The translations under genes were made by a program, and so were the position numbers. The notes under the pieces are model-generated. The model saw only the letters and a list, made by a program, of their open reading frames with translations, had not been told where the DNA came from and did not search any database. From Pseudomonas phage PaBG: a stretch of DNA of 64,000 bases. This document shows positions 1-51,904 of the stretch, piece by piece; the first letter of the stretch is position 1; every line of letters begins with the position of its first letter. The DNA lies in the sequence record KF147891.1. One strand, given 5' to 3'.

Positions 1-570
1 GCGCGCTTTATCGCTGAGTTCCCGCACTCTGACTTCTTCCTCTCGGAAGTTTCCGAGCCAATGCTGGCTGAAATGCACGAGCGCTTTGCTGATCTGCCGA
101 ACGTGTTTCCTGTGAGCTACGATCTGCGCAAGACGTCCGAGCAGATTGCCACAGCGATTCGTAATCCGAAGTTCGGCATGGCCCACGCTGGGCTGAACCC
201 TGTTGCGTCGCACACTACGCTGGTGCTGTCTATTCTCACCATGATCTTCGTGCCCATCAACTTCCGCCCGAGCATCTACAAGGGCGTGTACGACGGACTG
301 GCCCGCGGCGGCGCGTTCATCGTTGTCGAGAAGGTGCTTGGCAACTCCGCCGCCATGCAAGAGCTGCTGGTTGACGTGTACCACGAGTACAAGCACGACA
401 ACGGCTACAGCTGGGAAGCCATCGAGCGCAAACGCGCCGCCCTCGAAGGCGTGCAAGTACCTGTGAGCCATGAGACCAACATCGATATGTTGCGTGCCGC
501 TGGCTTCCGCAACGTCGAATCGTTCTGGCGCAACATGAATTTCGTGGCCTATCTGGCTATCAAGGATTAA
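1..570 (+). CDS. CmoA-family class I SAM-dependent methyltransferase-fold protein (carboxy-S-adenosyl-L-methionine synthase-like); 5' end lies upstream of the window
   Basis: The reading frame is open from nt 1 (no stop before the ATG at 61) and ends with TAA at 570. The C-terminal 170 aa align by eye with the E. coli CmoA C-terminus: GGAFIVVEK / GGALVLSEK, LLVDVYHEYKHDNGYS / LLFNMHHDFKRANGYS, EAIERKRAALEGV / EISQKRSMLENV, LRAAGF / LHKAGF, WRNMNFVAYLAIK / WFQCFNFGSLVALK. Confidence 0.6.
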   Translation, partial: ARFIAEFPHSDFFLSEVSEPMLAEMHERFADLPNVFPVSYDLRKTSEQIATAIRNPKFGMAHAGLNPVASHTTLVLSILTMIFVPINFRPSIYKGVYDGLARGGAFIVVEKVLGNSAAMQELLVDVYHEYKHDNGYSWEAIERKRAALEGVQVPVSHETNIDMLRAAGFRNVESFWRNMNFVAYLAIKD

Positions 571-572
571 CG

Positions 573-1025
573 ATGCGTGAACTCAAGCTACTCCGCAAGC
601 GCGTAAAGCAGGCTTGGGCGGCAGAAGCTGACCTGAGTCCGAATGAGCGAGAACTGCACCAGTGGCAGTTCCTGTCGATGCAGAGCAACGTGCCCTATGT
701 CGTCGGTAAGGGTGCCGCCAACACGTTCTTCTATCGTGTCGGTACTACTGGTGAAATGACCTACGTGATGCCAGACGAAATGTTTGCCATCATGGACAAG
801 TGGGTCAACTCTAGCTTTGCTTTGTTCGCCATCACCAAGACGCGCGACATCAAAGACGCCCCGTGCTCCACGGACATCAACGTCCTGCTGCAAAAGACGA
901 AGGACAAGTACGTCGGTTATTTCATTGTCGGTATCACACCCGACCAGCGTGTAGTTCGCCTGCATGTATTGAAAAGCGGACTCCGCAAAAACCAATGGGT
1001 GCCCTTCAAGCCGAAGAAACGGTAA
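573..1025 (+). CDS. hypothetical protein (150 aa)
   Basis: ATG start 3 nt after the upstream stop; compact operon context; no recognisable motif. Confidence 0.4.
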   Translation: MRELKLLRKRVKQAWAAEADLSPNERELHQWQFLSMQSNVPYVVGKGAANTFFYRVGTTGEMTYVMPDEMFAIMDKWVNSSFALFAITKTRDIKDAPCSTDINVLLQKTKDKYVGYFIVGITPDQRVVRLHVLKSGLRKNQWVPFKPKKR

Positions 1026-1034
1026 GGAAAGACA

Positions 1035-1859
1035 ATGGACCAGAAGACTCGTTCCAAGAAATTGCGCCGAGCGCTCGTTGCGCAGGCGAAGTCGGTGGGC
1101 GTCAAGAATGTAGCCGTTCCCATGAGCAGCGGTGTGGACAGTCACTGTGCGCTGTTCGCCTGCCTCGAAGCTGGGTTGAGCCCGCACGTCTACTCGTTCC
1201 ATCTGGACGGCGTTGAAAGCCGTGACGTGCGTGTCGCCGAGAAGACAGCGGAAGCCTTCGATCTGCCGTTCACCAAAGTGACGCTACCCAATGGCAAGAA
1301 GCAACTCATCAAGGACGTCATCGAGCTTGCCCGTTTCGGCTGCCGTAGCAAGACGGACTTCGAGTGCTTCTGGCCAATGTGGCACTTGCTGCCGAAGATC
1401 AAGCAGAAGGCTTTCTTCACCGGCCATGGTGCCGACAGCCTGTACTGCCTTAGCCGCAAAGCTGTTCAACACTACGCCGGCCGCGAAGATGAATTTCGTA
1501 GGCTGGCTTTCTCGTCCAACAAAGCCTTCCAGAAGGGCTTGATCGAGAAGTGGTGTGAGACTAAGGGCAAAGGCAAAATCTACTGCCCGATCTTCTTCAA
1601 CCAGCAGACGCTTGCAATCTTCCAAGGCGCCAAGCCTGCTGATCTGAACAAGCCGATCCAGAAAGCCGTGAGCCGCATGGCGTTCGAGGAATACTTCGAG
1701 CATGTGCGCGTCTACGTTCACCAACCTTTCCAGTTGGGTGACACCGGCATCAAGATCGGCTTCGAGCAGCATCTGCTGGACAGCGAACTCAACACCAAGT
1801 CCTACAAAAGCGTTGTCGGCATTTATAATGAGCTGGTGCGCAACTACGGGAAGAAGTGA
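1035..1859 (+). CDS. PP-loop ATP pyrophosphatase superfamily protein (PAPS-reductase / QueC / Asn-synthase-like fold)
   Basis: RBS AAGGAAAG 8 nt upstream. N-terminal strand-loop VAVPMSSGVDSHCALFACLEAG matches the SGGxDS PP-loop signature in its usual position. Confidence 0.5.
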   Translation: MDQKTRSKKLRRALVAQAKSVGVKNVAVPMSSGVDSHCALFACLEAGLSPHVYSFHLDGVESRDVRVAEKTAEAFDLPFTKVTLPNGKKQLIKDVIELARFGCRSKTDFECFWPMWHLLPKIKQKAFFTGHGADSLYCLSRKAVQHYAGREDEFRRLAFSSNKAFQKGLIEKWCETKGKGKIYCPIFFNQQTLAIFQGAKPADLNKPIQKAVSRMAFEEYFEHVRVYVHQPFQLGDTGIKIGFEQHLLDSELNTKSYKSVVGIYNELVRNYGKK

Positions 1860-1861
1860 CC

Positions 1862-2473
1862 ATGTTCATCCAAAACTATATCCACTACAAGACCGATCCC
1901 GCCTCGTGGGTGCTGAACACGCTGTTCCCGCTGACTGCGGAAGAGTACGGCGACCAGCAAGCTTGGCTCGATGCTGGAGCTCCAGACGAACCTCCGATGA
2001 CTCGCGTCCTGAATGCTGAGCAAGATCGACTGTTCAAGCTGGTACACAAGCACGCCAGTGACTACTACGCGCAGAACAAGCCGTACCTGAACTCCGTCGC
2101 AATCATGATGGCAATGACCGCGCTCTACGGTGAGCAGCAAGTTCTCGGCCATTCGTATCGCGGTGCATTCCTGTTTGCCGGCAACTGCGAAGCGATGTTC
2201 AGTCGTCTGGTGATGCAAGGTCAAGGTGCAATGGATTTCATGCGCTACAACCTTGCACAAGAAGTAACTGGTGACCCGATGCTCGCGGTAATTCGCGCCG
2301 AGCAACTGTGCCACAAGTACGGCCTGCGTAATCACCGCATGCCAACCGGTGACGGTACCGACATCGTGTTCAGCCTTGAGCCGATCGCCAACCCGGTGTT
2401 CGATAACGTCAAATACATTCCATCCGTCGCTGGCTACTATACCATCGTCGGCAAAGGTGCAGCGAGGGATTAA
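1862..2473 (+). CDS. hypothetical protein
   Basis: The ORF-track frame begins with GTG at 1856, overlapping the upstream stop. The first ATG is at 1862 (MFIQNY...). No recognisable motif. Confidence 0.4.
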   Translation: MFIQNYIHYKTDPASWVLNTLFPLTAEEYGDQQAWLDAGAPDEPPMTRVLNAEQDRLFKLVHKHASDYYAQNKPYLNSVAIMMAMTALYGEQQVLGHSYRGAFLFAGNCEAMFSRLVMQGQGAMDFMRYNLAQEVTGDPMLAVIRAEQLCHKYGLRNHRMPTGDGTDIVFSLEPIANPVFDNVKYIPSVAGYYTIVGKGAARD

Positions 2474-2475
2474 CC

Positions 2476-3537
2476 GTGGCCAAGAAAGACAAACTCAAGA
2501 AGAAAAAAGGTGATGTCAAGATCGATGTCACCGTCGAGAAGAAAAAGAAAAAGAAGGCGAAAGCCGAGGTAATGCCGATCGCGAAGGACAGCTACATCAT
2601 CGTTCGTGTCGGTAGCAAGCACAAGCTGGCACTCGCCATCAACCCGGAACGCGGTCGCGCTGTCATCGACGAAACTCTGGCGGACGACGAGCCACAGCAC
2701 ATCGAGTTCGACGAGAACAACCTGGTGTGCAACCTGGGCACCAAGCCCAAGGGTGGCGCTGCCTTCGGCGTGCGTATCGAACCCTACGTCTCCAGCGTCG
2801 AATCCAAGTACGGCCAGATGCACTTCTTCCGCGAGCTGGGTGACCTGGAGAAGAAAGCACTCAAGCGCGCACTGCGTCGCACCTACGACGGCATGCTGGA
2901 ACAGAACCTGAACGTCTTCCCGTTCACCCAGATGAAGATTACGCCGAAGCGCGGCAAGTACGCGGGTATGTATCTGTTCCGTCGCAAGTCTGGCGAGGTC
3001 TGGGATGCCGTTGTACTGCACCCGGAGACGTTCGAGGACACCAAGTTCAACGAGTACCTGCTGTACCACGAATACGGTCACGCTGTCTGGTACAAGATGA
3101 TCACTGCCAGCTACAAGGCCAAGTGGATCAAGCTCTACCACAAGCGCCTGGAGCTGATGAACATCCTGAAAGATCGTCTTGAGCCGATGCTGGACGAACT
3201 GCTCAAGTTCGCCGGCAGTCTCAAGGACTTCTACAAGGAACTCGAAGAGGAAGACCGCCTCGTGTTCCGTGAGGTGCTGTCGCACTACAAGCGCTACCAC
3301 AAGATGGATGGCTACTCGATGGACATCCTGCACATGGAAGACACTGAGAAGTTTGCTTCGATGTGGCCGAAGCGTGCAACTCTCGTTGAATCGCGCCCTG
3401 ACCTGAGCGAATATGCGATGGTCAAGCCTGAGGAGTTCTGGGCAGAAGCGTTTGCGTTCCACATGACTGGGCGCAAAATGCCCAAGGACATTACCAAAGC
3501 CATGGAGAAAACGCTGACTGCTTTGCAGAGCGTGTAG
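2476..3537 (+). CDS. putative zinc metalloprotease-like protein with a lysine-rich N-terminus (HExxH)
   Basis: GTG start with a good RBS (GAGGG, 7 nt spacing). Poly-K N-terminal segment (KKKKGDVKIDVTVEKKKKKKAKAE). HEYGH motif (YLLYHEYGHAVWY). A downstream EEFWAEAFAFH could supply the third zinc ligand or catalytic Glu. Confidence 0.45.
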   Translation: MAKKDKLKKKKGDVKIDVTVEKKKKKKAKAEVMPIAKDSYIIVRVGSKHKLALAINPERGRAVIDETLADDEPQHIEFDENNLVCNLGTKPKGGAAFGVRIEPYVSSVESKYGQMHFFRELGDLEKKALKRALRRTYDGMLEQNLNVFPFTQMKITPKRGKYAGMYLFRRKSGEVWDAVVLHPETFEDTKFNEYLLYHEYGHAVWYKMITASYKAKWIKLYHKRLELMNILKDRLEPMLDELLKFAGSLKDFYKELEEEDRLVFREVLSHYKRYHKMDGYSMDILHMEDTEKFASMWPKRATLVESRPDLSEYAMVKPEEFWAEAFAFHMTGRKMPKDITKAMEKTLTALQSV

Positions 3538-4112: not shown

Positions 4113-4346
4113 ATGAACTTTGGTGAAGCGCTACACGTACTGGAACAAGGCGGCAAAGTCCAGCGCACCGGCTGGAATGGCAACGGCATGTGGCTCGAAC
4201 TCCAAGTGCCTGACGAACACAGCAAGATGACGCTACCGTACATCTTCCTGTCGTATCCTGCAGATGCCAAGAACACGCCCGGTGCGCGCGTACCCTGGGC
4301 TCCGTCGCAGACCGACGTTCTGGCGAAAGACTGGCAAGTGGTTTAA
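4113..4346 (+). CDS. DUF2829-family small protein (Tad2-like, candidate anti-Thoeris signal sponge)
   Basis: 77 aa. Starts MNFGEALHVLEQGGKVQRTGWNGNGMWLELQ and ends ...LAKDWQVV, matching my recollection of the DUF2829 consensus (M.FGEAL.ALK.GKKV.R.GWNGKGM...DWE). RBS GGAG 8 nt upstream. Confidence 0.55.
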   Translation: MNFGEALHVLEQGGKVQRTGWNGNGMWLELQVPDEHSKMTLPYIFLSYPADAKNTPGARVPWAPSQTDVLAKDWQVV

Positions 4347-4358
4347 CAGGAGCCCATC

Positions 4359-5498
4359 ATGGCAAAGAAAAAAGAGAAGGCACCGCTCCCGCAACCTTCT
4401 GCAACCGAATCCCTGGCGGTCAAGTATCGCCCACGCACGTTGAAGGACGTGAAAGGCCAAGACAATGCTGTCGCCGCTGTCAAAGGTATGATCAAGCAGC
4501 GCAAGTACCCGGGTGCCATCCTGATCACCGGGCCGAGCGGCACCGGCAAGACCACGCTTGCCCGCATCCTTGCCACGTACATGAATGCCGACGACCCGAA
4601 GAAAGTGAAGGAGTCGATGGCGTATCGTCTGGGCGAAAAGCACCCAGACATCCTGACGCTGAACGCTGGCACCAACGGCAAAGTCGAAGACATCCGTACG
4701 CTGGTCAAGGGCTCGCGCTCTGCTCCGATGTCCAACTACCGCGTCATCATCATCGACGAAGCACACAAGCTCACCGGCGCCTCTGCCGAAGCTCTGCTTG
4801 TTCCAATGGAAGAGCCGCCGAGTCGTACCATCTGGATTCTCTGCACGACCGACCCGGAGAAGCTGCTCGACACGATGCAGAACCGCTGTGTCAAGTTGCA
4901 CCTGAGTCCTGTGGAGCCCAACCACATCGTTGATCGTCTGGCAGAAGTTGCTGCCGCAGAAGGCGTCAAGATGGGCAAAGAGAAGGAAGCGAAGAAGGCG
5001 CTGAATGCCATCGCGCAACTTTCCGACGGCAGTATGCGCAACGCCATCTCCATTCTCGAAAACCTCATGTTCGCCGTTGCTGGTGGCTTGGATTTCTCGG
5101 CCGAGGGTGCCCTCAAGTCCTATGTCGAGTCCGGTGCTGCCGACCTAGACAAGGCAGCAGCCTCCATGGTGGCTGCGTCGCTCAATCTCGACCTGCCGGG
5201 CGCTGTCAGTATGATTCGTCGTGCTGAGAACCCGCGCGGTATCGTGTACAAGTCGCGTATGCTGGTCGATTTCCTGATCGGCGAAAAGACGAAGACTGCC
5301 AAGTTCCAACCGTACACTGGTCGCGTGTTCAAGCAGGTTGCCGAGAAGATGGGCATTAAGTACAGTCTGCGTGCCCTGCTGCTTCTCCAGACGACCATCA
5401 CGAACGTGGAGTTGCAAATGAACAGTTGCAGCATCGCCGAAGCCGTGCTGCTCCAAACCGCCATCGGCAATTTTATCATCGAGAACAAGAGCGAGTAA
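4359..5498 (+). CDS. AAA+ clamp-loader subunit (DnaX / RFC-like)
   Basis: RBS AGGAG. Starts with the RFC/DnaX box KYRPRTLKDVKGQDNAV. Walker A GPSGTGKTT, Walker B IIIDEAH, sensor region SRTIWILCTTD. Confidence 0.7.
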   Translation: MAKKKEKAPLPQPSATESLAVKYRPRTLKDVKGQDNAVAAVKGMIKQRKYPGAILITGPSGTGKTTLARILATYMNADDPKKVKESMAYRLGEKHPDILTLNAGTNGKVEDIRTLVKGSRSAPMSNYRVIIIDEAHKLTGASAEALLVPMEEPPSRTIWILCTTDPEKLLDTMQNRCVKLHLSPVEPNHIVDRLAEVAAAEGVKMGKEKEAKKALNAIAQLSDGSMRNAISILENLMFAVAGGLDFSAEGALKSYVESGAADLDKAAASMVAASLNLDLPGAVSMIRRAENPRGIVYKSRMLVDFLIGEKTKTAKFQPYTGRVFKQVAEKMGIKYSLRALLLLQTTITNVELQMNSCSIAEAVLLQTAIGNFIIENKSE

Positions 5499-9437: not shown

Positions 9438-10262
9438 TTAGCCGATTACCGCTCGCCGAACCTGTGCTTTCGTCATGTTGTACCAACCACTTGGCAGGCT
9501 TCGCCTGTTCCCGCCTTTGTCCATGAGAAGAAGGGTGAAGTTATACCCAGCGGCGATTGCAGCCTTTGCCTTCGCCGCGTTCTTCTTGAACGGACCGCCG
9601 TCTTGCTTCCCGCTCAATCCTAGAGTCCAGACGCTCTTGACCTCGATCACGTTGTTCTTGGTAACGTGGTAGAAGTCAGGAATGAACGTCCGGACCTTGC
9701 CCTCGAAACGATACTTGATCGTAGGCTTCCCGTCACGCACTTCGGAGACGATGTTCTCTGGCTTGGCACCACGGGCGATCATGTATTGCAGTGCCGCAGG
9801 TTCAAAGCCTTGGAGCTTGCGCGTCACGCCCGCTATGACTACCTCTTTCCTCTCGAAGTAACCGTAACGCTGTTTATCTTTCGCACAGACGAAACAGCCA
9901 TGCCCCTTGATGATGTGATTTGGGAGCATCTTTCGTTCGCTCTTACATTCAAGGCAGACGTGCATGATTTTCTTCAGGCGGCCCCTGTAGTCTTCCAAAG
10001 GCCTGAGTGTGGAGTCGCGCTCTTTAAGTTCGGCGATATAGGCATCCGTAGTTGGCAACTGATAACAACACAACAACTTGCCACGAGACGTTTTGGAACT
10101 CATAACGACCCCAGGATGGCGGTCGCGGATATCGCCACATTTGGTGCATTGGTGTTTGATTGAAGTCTTGATATTGACGTACTGTTCCAGTACGATGAGG
10201 TCAGGCCCGTACTTTTGCCTAACTAAGGCCAAGTACTCCTGATGGGTGATGCGCTTAGGCAT
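9438..10262 (-). CDS. free-standing Zn-ribbon + PD-(D/E)xK-like nuclease (homing-endonuclease-like)
   Basis: Sole reverse-strand gene in a + strand operon, sitting between the DHH and sbcD genes. Several CxxC pairs (TKCG, CLECK, CFVCAK). FIPDFYHVTKNNVIEVKS fits a D...ExK restriction-endonuclease-like core. Locally looks less GC-rich than its neighbours (by eye). Confidence 0.4.
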   Translation of the reverse strand: MPKRITHQEYLALVRQKYGPDLIVLEQYVNIKTSIKHQCTKCGDIRDRHPGVVMSSKTSRGKLLCCYQLPTTDAYIAELKERDSTLRPLEDYRGRLKKIMHVCLECKSERKMLPNHIIKGHGCFVCAKDKQRYGYFERKEVVIAGVTRKLQGFEPAALQYMIARGAKPENIVSEVRDGKPTIKYRFEGKVRTFIPDFYHVTKNNVIEVKSVWTLGLSGKQDGGPFKKNAAKAKAAIAAGYNFTLLLMDKGGNRRSLPSGWYNMTKAQVRRAVIG

Positions 10263-10394
10263 GTGATACTCTCTGAAAGTAAGGTGAAGGTGCCCAGACG
10301 GTATCCGTATTCAGAGTACGGAAGGACTGGCCGGTCTTTTCCCGTCTGGACAAGTGTAAATTAGTCGCATACGGAACAGACTTTGGTGTTTACC
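10263..10394. promoter_or_regulatory. divergent intergenic region with nested inverted repeats
   Basis: CCAGACGG ... CCGTCTGG (8 bp) enclose the palindrome CCGTAttcagagTACGG. The minus strand carries GACTAATTTAC about 95 nt upstream of the nuclease start. The + strand sbcD start follows. Confidence 0.3.
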
Positions 10395-11462
10395 ATGTTA
10401 GAAGCAATCAGTACGTCAGATTTCCACCTCGAGGGAATGTTCAAGCATTTCGCCGATGCAACCGCGCGCCAGTTGCGTGAAATCGACAAGATTTACCAGT
10501 ACGGAATGAGCAAAGGCATTCGCCATGTCTTCATTCCGGGCGACATTTCCGATACGCCTCACATGAAGTTCGCCACGTACATGCAGTTGGTGATGTTCTT
10601 CAAGAAGTACGACGGCATCATCAACAGCTACTACATCGGAGGTAACCATGACCGTTCCGATGTCGAGTCCACGTCGTGTGACTTCCTCAAGATGATCGCG
10701 GATCACGGCTTCTTCAAGTCGTTCCGCATCTTCCTGCAACCTGAACAAGACCGCATCGATGGTACGCTCGTAAACTTCTGCGCATGGCCGTGCTACGAGA
10801 CCATGACCGAGAAGGAAGGTTGCCTGAACTTTGCCCACGTTGAATACAACGGCGCAATCGGTGATAACGGCCGACCGTTGAAGACCAAGCATGAGTTCCG
10901 CAGCCATGAGCGCGACTTCACCATCAGCGGTCACATCCACCAGTACCAGTATTTGAAGAACAAGCGTGCCATCTTCAATGGTAACCCGTACCAGAAGAAC
11001 TTCGGCGAGGCGTTGCCTAAGGGTTTCGTTCACTTCAAGGCCAGAACCAGTAAGAATACGGTTGACGTGAAGCACCGCTTCATCGACAACATGCCGAACT
11101 TTCGCCTGGAGACGGTCGTTGTGGAATCCCCGAAGGACTTCGCACGCCTGAAGGATGACAACAACATCCGCTACAAGCTGCTGGTGGCCCCTGATGTCCT
11201 GGTGCCCGCTGATCTGCGGCTCACCTACCCGAACATCACAGGTGGTATCTTCAACTCGGAAACCAAGAAGGCCGCCGCGAACGATGATTCGCCAATGGTC
11301 GAGCAACTCGGCCAGGTGGCTCAGATTAGCCGCGTGAAGCCTACCACCGGATTGAACAATTGGTTGGCTGGTGAGGGTTTCTCCAAGAAAGAAATCTCCA
11401 TGGCCAAAGGTATGGTCAAGGAGGCCATGAACGAACTCGGCATTTCCGTTGGAGAGTCCTAG
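10395..11462 (+). CDS. sbcD: SbcD / Mre11-like calcineurin-type phosphoesterase (nuclease)
   Basis: Metallophosphatase motifs in order: SDFHLEG (D-x-H), IPGDISD (GD), GGNHD (GNHD), ISGHIHQ (GH-x-H). Confidence 0.7.
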   Translation: MLEAISTSDFHLEGMFKHFADATARQLREIDKIYQYGMSKGIRHVFIPGDISDTPHMKFATYMQLVMFFKKYDGIINSYYIGGNHDRSDVESTSCDFLKMIADHGFFKSFRIFLQPEQDRIDGTLVNFCAWPCYETMTEKEGCLNFAHVEYNGAIGDNGRPLKTKHEFRSHERDFTISGHIHQYQYLKNKRAIFNGNPYQKNFGEALPKGFVHFKARTSKNTVDVKHRFIDNMPNFRLETVVVESPKDFARLKDDNNIRYKLLVAPDVLVPADLRLTYPNITGGIFNSETKKAAANDDSPMVEQLGQVAQISRVKPTTGLNNWLAGEGFSKKEISMAKGMVKEAMNELGISVGES

Positions 11463-50091: not shown

Positions 50092-50580
50092 TTGAAATTC
50101 CCCAAGAATCCACGGGACATCGCCAAGTTCATCGATTTCCTAAGAGTGCTGTGTGCGTCGATTAACGGTAAGCCCGAGGGCTTTATCGGCACTGCCAAAG
50201 GCGTGGAATCCGCACACTGTCACACGCGCGTCGCCAAGTTCCTGCAGACGCACGCATCCGAACAACCAAAAGCAATGGTCGTTATCCTGGGTACTCCAGG
50301 TAGTTACTACGCCGTTGCGCACTCGCTCGTGGTGAGTGCAGATGAATCTGCCATCATTGTGGATGCCTACACTGGGCACTTCCTCGAAGGGCAGTACATC
50401 ACCGACTTGCAGGGTCACAAGAAGCACTACCTGATCTACGCTGCGTACTACGCCGCCGACCTTGTCACCCTAGCCAAGGCAGACAACTTCGAGGAAGCGC
50501 TTGAGCATCTGCGCGTCGCACCATTCAAGGGTGACGACATCCCATCGATTGGTCATGCCAAGGTACAAATCAAGAAGTGA
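50092..50580 (+). CDS. hypothetical protein (TTG start per track)
   Basis: Track ORF only; no motif. Confidence 0.3.
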   Translation: MKFPKNPRDIAKFIDFLRVLCASINGKPEGFIGTAKGVESAHCHTRVAKFLQTHASEQPKAMVVILGTPGSYYAVAHSLVVSADESAIIVDAYTGHFLEGQYITDLQGHKKHYLIYAAYYAADLVTLAKADNFEEALEHLRVAPFKGDDIPSIGHAKVQIKK

Positions 50581-50629
50581 GTGGCAGGATGCCCTCCTAA
50601 CTCAAATGGAATCTAAACAGGAAGCGGAT

Positions 50630-51904
50630 ATGAAACTTGCAGTCTACGCCATTGCGAAGAACGAAGCCAAACACGTCGAGCGCTGGTACGAGTCGGTAAA
50701 AGACGCCGACGAAATCATCGTGCTGGACACCGGCTCCACCGATGGAACCCAGAAGCTACTGAGCGATCTGGGCGTGCGTGTTGCCTCGATGGCTTTTGAA
50801 CCTTTCCGATTCGACACCGCCCGAAACGCGGCACTGAATCTGGTGAGCCTCGACGCCGACTACTGCATGTTCATCGACTTGGATGAGACCATGCCCAAGG
50901 GTAGCATCGCTGCCATTCGCAAGGCCATCAACAAGACTCAGAAGGACATGTACGCCCTGCGCCTGGTCTTCAAGTTTGACCACAAACGCCAGCCGATCGT
51001 GTCGTACCCGCGCGAAGCCGTACACCGCCGCAACGCTTTCTACTGGAAGTACCCTGTACACGAACTGCTCGCCTGCCATCAGGGCGAATACTCGTATGAG
51101 GAGCTCAACGTCCAGGTGTTCCACGAGCCGGATGAAACGAAAGAGCGCTCCTCGTATCTGAGCCTGCTGGAAACAGCCGTCGAAGAAAACCCGAACGATC
51201 CGCGTCAGGCGCAGTATCTGGGCCGTGAGTACATGTACCAAGGCCGCCCGTTCGATGCTCAGATGTGGCTCAAGCGCCACATTCAAATGGAACCACACGG
51301 TCCGTTCCGTTCAGAGTCTGCGTCGTACATTGCCCAGTGTTTCCTGATGCTCGAAGGGCAAGTCGAAGAGGCTATCGACGAAGCTGAGGCTTGGTACTTC
51401 CGAGCCATCGCCGAGTTCAATAGTGCCCGTGAACCGTTCTGTGAACTGGCGGACCTTTACTTCAAGTGCCATGAGTTCGAGAGTGCCATCGGCATGTTGA
51501 AGTCGGCCATGCGTATTCCAGCGAAGCCGAATGTCGCCATGATCAGCCGAGACGAGTTCTACTCGCACTGGCCGCATCACATGCTCGCTGCCTGCTACTT
51601 CAACATCGGCAATCGCACGGCAGCAAAATACCACATCCAAGAAGCGATGAAGTCTGCTGGCACTCTCAGCGGTCACCTCGCAAACGACATCGTGAAAATT
51701 CTGGGGCTCGAAAATGCTACTCAGTCTCTCCTTGGCGTCGAAGCCAGCTCGGGTGTCGAAGGACACGTTCCTGAAGATGGGCCCGAGCAAACAGAAGCAG
51801 TATCTGACCCACTACCCTCGGAGCAGCCATCGCTTTCTTCTCGCCAAGAAAGCCAAAGCTCCGAAACCGGAAGTGCAGCCGCGTCGTCGCCTGTCTCGGA
51901 ATGA
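50630..51904 (+). CDS. family 2 glycosyltransferase (GT-A fold) with a C-terminal TPR-like region
   Basis: MKLAVYAIAKNEAKHVERW ... IIVLDTGSTDGT ... FIDLDE is a typical GT2 N-terminus with DxD. C-terminal half YLGREYMYQGRPFDAQMWLKRH ... FCELADLYFKCHEFESAIGML ... is TPR-like. The last 42 codons are low-complexity and overlap the next ORF. Confidence 0.6.
   Translation: MKLAVYAIAKNEAKHVERWYESVKDADEIIVLDTGSTDGTQKLLSDLGVRVASMAFEPFRFDTARNAALNLVSLDADYCMFIDLDETMPKGSIAAIRKAINKTQKDMYALRLVFKFDHKRQPIVSYPREAVHRRNAFYWKYPVHELLACHQGEYSYEELNVQVFHEPDETKERSSYLSLLETAVEENPNDPRQAQYLGREYMYQGRPFDAQMWLKRHIQMEPHGPFRSESASYIAQCFLMLEGQVEEAIDEAEAWYFRAIAEFNSAREPFCELADLYFKCHEFESAIGMLKSAMRIPAKPNVAMISRDEFYSHWPHHMLAACYFNIGNRTAAKYHIQEAMKSAGTLSGHLANDIVKILGLENATQSLLGVEASSGVEGHVPEDGPEQTEAVSDPLPSEQPSLSSRQESQSSETGSAAASSPVSE

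Follow-up and report, generated by a model that had tools for sequence, protein, structure and literature searches.

A window of 64,000 nucleotides (nt) of Pseudomonas phage PaBG (KF147891.1) was analyzed, at the start of which lies a group of five co-directional, tightly packed genes on the plus strand, with intergenic gaps of 2-9 nt. Nucleotide 1 of the window corresponds to nt 128001 of PaBG, a constant offset of 128000 from the published annotation (Evseev et al. 2020, PMC7412058). No terminator-like site was found on the plus strand before nt 5071 of the window. Frame 1 has no stop codon between nt 1 and the one at 568-570, and the first gene is cut by the 5' edge of the window. In the PaBG annotation, the order of the genes in this region is PaBG_00176, encoding a ParB-like domain nuclease, followed by PaBG_00177, PaBG_00178, PaBG_00179, and PaBG_00180 (PMC7412058). 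Three of them encode homologues of CmoX (PaBG_00177), CmoA (PaBG_00178), and CmoY (PaBG_00180), and it is very likely that this cluster, in which an open reading frame (ORF) of 150 amino acids (aa) separates cmoA from cmoY, hypermodifies cytosines in the phage's own DNA (Table 1). The same genes, ParB-like, DNA_methylase, CmoA, 150-aa ORF, and Asn_synthase-like, were found in that order in all of six metagenomic or Sequence Read Archive contigs that encode an identical 150-aa protein and whose DNA is 88-97% identical to the window. A more distant relative, contig L006, also has the gene order of PaBG, and its CmoA and CmoY are 70% and 82% identical, respectively.

The three enzymes were described together by Yang et al. 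(Nat Commun 2025, December; PMC12783734) as the CmoA-CmoX-CmoY system of Synechococcus phage S-B43, for which a CmoX structure is available (PDB 8YF3). SpCmoA converts S-adenosylmethionine (SAM) and prephenate to carboxy-SAM (Cx-SAM), and SpCmoX transfers the carboxymethyl group onto C5 of cytosine at GC motifs of double-stranded DNA, giving 5-carboxymethylcytosine (5cxmC) and blocking HhaI (PMC12783734). SpCmoY is an asparagine-synthetase homologue with the ATP-binding domain only that ligates glycine to 5cxmC in an ATP-dependent manner, and S-B43 virion DNA holds the glycine amide 5gcxmdC (PMC12783734).

The truncated first gene had been taken, in a reading made from the window sequence only, for the C-terminal part of CmoA, and this assignment was confirmed. 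The fragment matched TIGR00740 (CmoA) over profile positions 125-239 of 239 (E=1.5e-23, 83.8 bits) and phrog_4752 ("tRNA methyltransferase", E=1e-45), and all the motifs quoted in the sequence-only reading are present. Crystal chains of E. coli CmoA (4GEK, 4IWN) and H. influenzae YecO (1IM8) were matched with E values of about 1e-14 and 34% identity over 118 aa. The published translation of PaBG_00178 ends with exactly the sequence of the window ORF, and inspection of the upstream region, as had been suggested, yielded the full CmoA of 258 aa and, ahead of it, the C5-methyltransferase PaBG_00177. Where the two overlap, the window fragment shows 100% identity to the CmoA of L015, the closest contig. 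In E. coli CmoA, Arg199 forms a salt bridge to the Cx-SAM carboxylate and sets the enzyme apart from ordinary SAM methyltransferases, and Glu164 is highly conserved in the family (PMC3663124). The equivalents of both residues are kept in the window CmoA. The N-terminal SAM-binding residues (Tyr39; Asp62, Gly64, and Ser66), which lie upstream of the window, are kept in PaBG_00178 and L015 as PGY and IDLGAS; Asn132 is not conserved and is replaced by Ile, and an insertion of about 20 aa is located mid-domain when compared to bacterial CmoA. No Pfam family matched the fragment or the full-length protein, and the proposed comparison with Methyltransf_25 was therefore uninformative. We infer by homology that window positions 1-570 encode a CmoA able to convert SAM and prephenate to Cx-SAM.

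PaBG_00177 is separated from PaBG_00178 by 81 nt, and the cmoX-cmoA adjacency recurs in contigs L011-L016, L006, and L021. In SpCmoX, R350 is an arginine in place of the motif-X asparagine; it binds the carboxymethyl group, excludes SAM, and is needed for the use of Cx-SAM, and the SPPC motif together with R350 was the search criterion for CmoX used by Yang et al. (PMC12783734). The CmoX of L015, a contig 97% identical to the window at the nucleotide level, keeps every Cx-SAM contact of the 8YF3 structure, with F27, E49, F50, D71, S97-P-P-C100, and R313 corresponding to SpCmoX F25, E47, F48, D69, S95-C98, and R350. The best PDB match of the L006 CmoX is 8YF3 (E=1e-57), followed by the HaeIII methylase (6e-23). 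In the L015 alignment, the variable, target-recognition region of CmoX lacks about 37 aa relative to SpCmoX, and the GC target motif of SpCmoX may thus not carry over to PaBG CmoX.

The cmoX gene is split by an intein in several relatives of PaBG, in which its product has 710 or 766 aa rather than 335. Of the intein-bearing copies, only that of L011 was aligned; there, the intein sits directly before the catalytic Cys of the GSPP|C motif, and the +1 extein residue is thus the methyltransferase nucleophile. PaBG and contigs L013-L015 have the intein-free allele.

The PP-loop gene with an SSGVDS motif that had been noticed two genes downstream of cmoA is PaBG_00180. Its product matched Pfam Asn_synthase above the cut-off (E=4.9e-6, 26.9 bits; cut-off 21) and phrog_26038 (E=6e-138). 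PF01507 and PF06508, two families put forward for this protein, gave no match at E<0.01, and no solved structure matched the CmoY sequence at E<0.01 either. PaBG CmoY is 33% identical to the validated SpCmoY (E=9e-28 to 1.5e-31), and its match to the S-B43 cmoY locus covers 90% of its length (E=4e-27). The PP-loop and about 40 invariant positions are common to the two proteins, and S31, G33, D35, and S36 are invariant in five aligned CmoY homologues including SpCmoY. PaBG CmoY consists of the asparagine-synthetase-like synthetase domain only, without the glutaminase domain, and has the same domain composition as SpCmoY. It did not qualify as AsnB, reaching 22.6 bits on TIGR01536 (cut-off 267.1) over profile positions 234-368 of 517 only.

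Table 1. Location of the features discussed, in the window and, where relevant, in the PaBG genome or in related contigs.
Feature	Window (nt)	Strand	PaBG or contig (nt)	Basis and remarks
CmoX, PaBG_00177, "DNA cytosine methylase"			PaBG 126705-127712	Annotation (PMC7412058); ends 288 nt before window nt 1
CmoA, C-terminal 189 aa, PaBG_00178	1-570	+	PaBG 127794-128570	TIGR00740, PDB, PHROG matches; 258 aa in full, first 69 codons upstream; annotated "tRNA (cmo5U34)-methyltransferase" (PMC7412058)
CmoA motif GGAFIVVEK	307-333			
CmoA Glu codon (E110)	328-330	+		E. coli CmoA Glu164 in 4GEK alignment
CmoA motif HEYKHDNGYS	382-411			
CmoA motif KRAALEGV	430-453			
CmoA Arg codon (R145)	433-435	+		E. 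coli CmoA Arg199 in 4GEK alignment
CmoA motif AGF	499-507			
CmoA motif WRNMNFVAYLAIK	526-564			
150-aa protein, PaBG_00179 / O152_gp307	573-1025	+	PaBG 128573-129025	No recognisable enzyme fold
CmoY-type ATP-dependent amide ligase (putative), PaBG_00180, 274 aa	1035-1859	+	PaBG 129035-129859	Pfam, PHROG, SpCmoY matches; annotated "putative asparagine synthase" (PMC7412058)
PP-loop ATP-pyrophosphatase motif SSGVDS	1125-1142	+		Starts at CmoY residue 31
203/205-aa ORF, PaBG_00181	1862-2473	+		Within the gene group at the window start
HExxH Zn-metalloprotease-like protein, PaBG_00182	2476-3537 (annotated start 2572)	+		phrog_17197, E=1e-147; annotated "Zn-metalloprotease" (PMC7412058)
HEYGH (HExxH) motif	3067-3081			
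Tad2-like small protein (Thoeris anti-defence 2 domain)	4113-4346	+		PF11195, E=1.2e-23; just upstream of clamp-loader gene
MutH/Vsr/HJR-like (DUF7487-related) endonuclease, PaBG_00189	9438-10262	-		Between DHH phosphoesterase and sbcD
GT2 glycosyltransferase with C-terminal TPR repeats	50501-51904	+		Domain matches; annotated lipooligosaccharide (LOS) beta-1,4-glucosyltransferase (PMC7412058)
ThyA (thymidylate synthase), 375 aa	57980-59107	-		Pfam, E=5e-87; TIGR03284, 277 bits (cut-off 108)
tRNA cluster (Thr, Ala, Lys, Asp, Lys)			PaBG 120228-122843	PaBG annotation; about 5-8 kb upstream of window nt 1
Intein-bearing cmoX			L011:7006-9138; L012:7006-9138; L016:7006-9138; L019:2053-4353	
DUF1611 gene (359 aa)			L019:4366-5445; L020:1814-2893	

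These results point to a three-step pathway. CmoA would convert SAM and host prephenate to Cx-SAM, which CmoX would use to place a carboxymethyl group onto C5 of cytosine in duplex DNA, giving 5cxmC; CmoY would then adenylate the 5cxmC carboxylate via its PP-loop and couple a free amine to form an amide. The expected benefit would be the shielding of phage DNA from host restriction enzymes. For PaBG, this proposal is based on the genes being present, on the signature residues that they encode, and on a linkage that is conserved. The sequence-only reading had envisaged a carboxymethyl group installed on DNA from Cx-SAM followed by amide formation by the PP-loop enzyme, and this is the pathway shown for the homologous S-B43 genes, with a CmoX-type gene located just upstream of the PaBG window. 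Its wording, "amidation", was not supported, the amine used in the characterised system being glycine and not ammonia. Glycine as the amine cannot be transferred to PaBG by homology, because the two CmoY proteins are only 33% identical and fall below the threshold of the published ligase network discussed below.

Several observations weigh against this interpretation. On TIGR00740, neither the CmoA fragment nor the complete CmoA, which in L015 reaches 130.5 bits, attained the NCBIfam trusted cut-off of 193.3 bits; however, this cut-off does not discriminate phage CmoAs, because SpCmoA, a biochemically validated phage enzyme, itself reaches only 115.6 bits. No CmoX gene was found in the 64-kilobase (kb) window by tblastn with SpCmoX and the L006 CmoX, and the link to CmoX comes from contigs that are nearly identical and from the annotation published for PaBG. 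The pairwise score between PaBG CmoY and SpCmoY is far below the edge threshold of the ligase similarity network (E=1e-56, PMC12783734). We found no chemical analysis of PaBG DNA in the literature, and the 2020 description of the phage is silent on DNA modification (PMC7412058). Finally, phage tRNA-Thr and tRNA-Ala genes lie about 5 kb upstream of the cluster and leave room for a contribution of CmoA to tRNA modification via the host CmoB. Both tRNA-Thr and tRNA-Ala are among the cmo5U-bearing species in Gram-negative bacteria.

It is thus conceivable that the phage CmoA serves translation by supplying Cx-SAM to the host CmoB for cmo5U34 formation on phage or host tRNAs, the C5-methyltransferase being an ordinary 5-methylcytosine methylase and PaBG_00180 an enzyme of amino-acid metabolism. 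The annotations of PaBG_00178 and PaBG_00180 and the upstream tRNA-Thr, Ala, Lys, and Asp genes agree with such a role, as does the action of bacterial CmoA in tRNA modification (PMC3663124). This explanation nevertheless appears very improbable. The window contains no tRNA gene, and no CmoB partner is annotated in the PaBG table, in which the one methyltransferase row is CmoA and the one methylase row is CmoX (the window was not queried with a CmoB sequence). Furthermore, the neighbouring C5-methyltransferase has an arginine at the position of R350, the residue by which SpCmoX excludes SAM and without which it cannot use Cx-SAM; asparagine synthesis requires a glutaminase domain, which CmoY lacks, and DNA is the demonstrated substrate of the ligase to which CmoY is homologous; and the three genes travel together in cyanobacterial and proteobacterial phages.

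The distribution of the genes is consistent with hypermodification of phage DNA as their common function. CmoA homologues were detected in 65 records of a cultured-phage collection, among them 48 from Erwinia, 2 from Dickeya, and 1 from Yersinia phages, and all of these 51 records also encode CmoY-like and CmoX-like proteins; the three genes also co-occur in Synechococcus phages including S-B43. Yang et al. reported 5,615 CmoX candidates (SPPC and R350), 4,257 CmoA, 2,251 ligases, and 1,660 ParBc in phage sequences, and noted the ParBc association as well as ligase clusters with other predicted amine substrates (PMC12783734). The earlier impression that CmoA is not standard phage cargo is contradicted by these numbers. 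In the Erwinia, Dickeya, and Yersinia jumbo phages, such as Y3 (KY984068), Yoloswag, Alexandra (MH248138), AD1, and fHe-Yen9-02 (OR620964), identity to the PaBG proteins is 42% for CmoA, up to 43% for CmoY, 45-50% for the CmoX-like protein, and 32-34% for the 150-aa ORF; unlike in PaBG, cmoX is located about 18 kb downstream of cmoA and the 150-aa ORF 2-5 kb away.

The CmoY-like genes of these otherwise similar jumbo phages fall into at least three divergence classes, with about 43%, 35%, and 25% identity to PaBG CmoY, which suggests a diversification of the attached amine. A tentative extension, which we regard as rather doubtful in its joint form, is that CmoY of the PaBG lineage couples 5cxmC to an amine other than glycine and that the 150-aa protein is a lineage-specific accessory factor, which may, for example, act in DNA or cofactor handling. 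If this were true, the use of another amine by PaBG CmoY would lead to a cytosine hypermodification not yet described, in a P. aeruginosa jumbo phage.

A variant of the module was observed in contigs L019 and L020, which represent a more distant relative, with the order ParB, CmoX (with an intein), a DUF1611 protein, CmoY, CmoA, and the 150-aa ORF. Given the additional DUF1611 gene, the modification could involve another step or a different one.

The sequence-only reading had also suggested that the two small ORFs flanking cmoY may be part of the module, and had proposed to look in their predicted structures for a CmoB-like or DNA-transferase fold. The 150-aa protein is 100% identical to O152_gp307 (BFVD entry S5VZM5), and no enzyme-like fold was recognised in the fold comparison. 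Its ORF starts 2-3 nt after cmoA in four sub-lineages, even when cmoY is upstream of cmoA (L019, L020), and among cultured phages its homologues were found only in CmoA-positive jumbo phages. Contig L017, however, encodes a 50%-identical homologue with none of the three cmo genes within 7 kb. The 150-aa protein is therefore a possible accessory of the module, and the evidence is ambiguous. The 205-aa ORF had three homologues among 5.8 billion proteins; in L019 and L020 its place is taken by other small ORFs, in L006 and L021 its conservation is only partial, and its AlphaFold2 model was unusable, with a predicted local distance difference test score (pLDDT) of 48. We judged that this ORF is not a conserved part of the module. 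In L012 and L013, a DUF723 endonuclease gene on the opposite strand lies between cmoY and the 205-aa ORF.

Three other genes had been proposed as partners, and their description as an HExxH protein, a ThyA with an insertion, and a GT2 glycosyltransferase was correct. A wider route to a non-canonical base involving these three proteins and both small ORFs might be considered, since all of them are encoded in the same 64-kb window and since ThyA-family and glycosyltransferase enzymes act in other phage hypermodification pathways (5-hydroxymethylcytosine and 5-hydroxymethyluracil routes). The distribution data largely refute it. Jumbo phages of Pseudomonas, Burkholderia, Ralstonia, Xanthomonas, and Vibrio widely encode homologues of the HExxH protein although they have no CmoA, and the homologue of Erwinia phages lies about 165 kb from cmoA; the HExxH gene, a 187-aa ORF, and the clamp loader form a conserved backbone synteny, and the HExxH protein was therefore rejected as a module component. 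TIGR03284 matched ThyA in two stretches, indicating an insertion of about 100 aa; the score is well above the equivalog cut-off, and ThyA is thus probably a real deoxythymidine monophosphate synthase despite the insertion. Nothing links it to the module, and it was rejected as well. The GT2 domain is encoded 49 kb from cmoA and is fused to TPR repeats, with nothing linking it to the module, and was also rejected. With the 205-aa ORF absent from related clusters and the 150-aa protein lacking an enzyme-like fold, the wider route is extremely unlikely.

Two further genes of the window may be relevant to phage defence or gene mobility. The first encodes a Tad2-like anti-defence protein, and more Tad2-like genes were observed nearby in related contigs. 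Its position 3.5 kb downstream of the cluster would fit the idea that CmoA mainly drains SAM as an anti-defence measure, like a phage SAM lyase, crippling host systems that depend on SAM, while the modification of DNA would be a secondary role or would not take place. This possibility was raised as open by Yang et al., who also reported a turnover of SpCmoA about 10 times faster than that of the E. coli enzyme (PMC12783734). However, SAM drainage leaves unexplained the tight and conserved linkage of cmoA to a Cx-SAM-specific CmoX and to the CmoY ligase, and it is compatible with the modification of DNA rather than an alternative to it; as the main role of CmoA, we consider it highly unlikely. 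The second gene, PaBG_00189, encodes a predicted endonuclease. Window positions 9440-10430 have no counterpart in the 97%-identical contig L015, and the PaBG_00189 region thus looks like a mobile homing-endonuclease insertion.

The concept of such a pathway is no longer new, as a publication of December 2025 already described the pathway, a structure, and how widely it is distributed. Our analysis suggests that the PaBG genes with tRNA methyltransferase, DNA cytosine methylase, and asparagine synthase annotations can be read together as a DNA hypermodification module, which would extend 5cxmC chemistry to a cultivable P. aeruginosa jumbo phage and to its Erwinia, Dickeya, and Yersinia relatives. 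These cultivable phages offer a direct way to test whether restriction is evaded and how diverse the attached amines are. The modified DNA may be refractory to digestion by restriction enzymes and interfere with nanopore base-calling.

The PaBG module was finally compared with known systems. As in the bacterial CmoA/CmoB cmo5U34 pathway (4GEK, 1IM8), PaBG encodes a protein with the CmoA fold, Arg199, Glu164, the PGY Tyr39, and DLGxS, and the presumed chemistry, from SAM and prephenate to Cx-SAM, would be the same; in contrast to the bacterial pathway, the acceptor enzyme in PaBG is a homologue of DNA C5-methyltransferases. In the engineered M.MpeI N374K, a basic residue at the motif-X asparagine position of a C5-methyltransferase confers the use of Cx-SAM and the formation of 5cxmC (PMC12783734). 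CmoX of the PaBG lineage likewise combines a C5-methyltransferase scaffold with a basic residue at this position, whereas M.MpeI N374K was engineered from a bacterial enzyme, is specific for CpG, and has no downstream ligase.

The closest resemblance is to S-B43. PaBG has the same three enzyme families, encoded by genes clustered on one strand beside replication genes; CmoX of the PaBG lineage has SPPC, the R350-equivalent arginine, and the other Cx-SAM contacts; and CmoY has the synthetase domain only, with its PP-loop kept. The ParB-domain neighbour is also a feature of many of the contigs described in PMC12783734. The two phages differ in that S-B43 is a cyanomyovirus and PaBG a Pseudomonas aeruginosa jumbo myovirus, and in that the gene order is ParB-X-A-150-aa ORF-Y in PaBG and A-Y-X in S-B43, with the 150-aa ORF wedged between cmoA and cmoY in PaBG, unlike in S-B43. 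Identity between their proteins is 29-36% for CmoA, 34-40% for CmoX, and 33% for CmoY, and in a MAFFT alignment PaBG CmoA keeps Arg199 while SpCmoA has Glu in that column, flanked by Lys on both sides. No mention of PaBG was found in the supplements of PMC12783734 that were accessible. Judged from its genes, the PaBG set is very probably a further, so far unremarked example of the published CmoA-CmoX-CmoY system.

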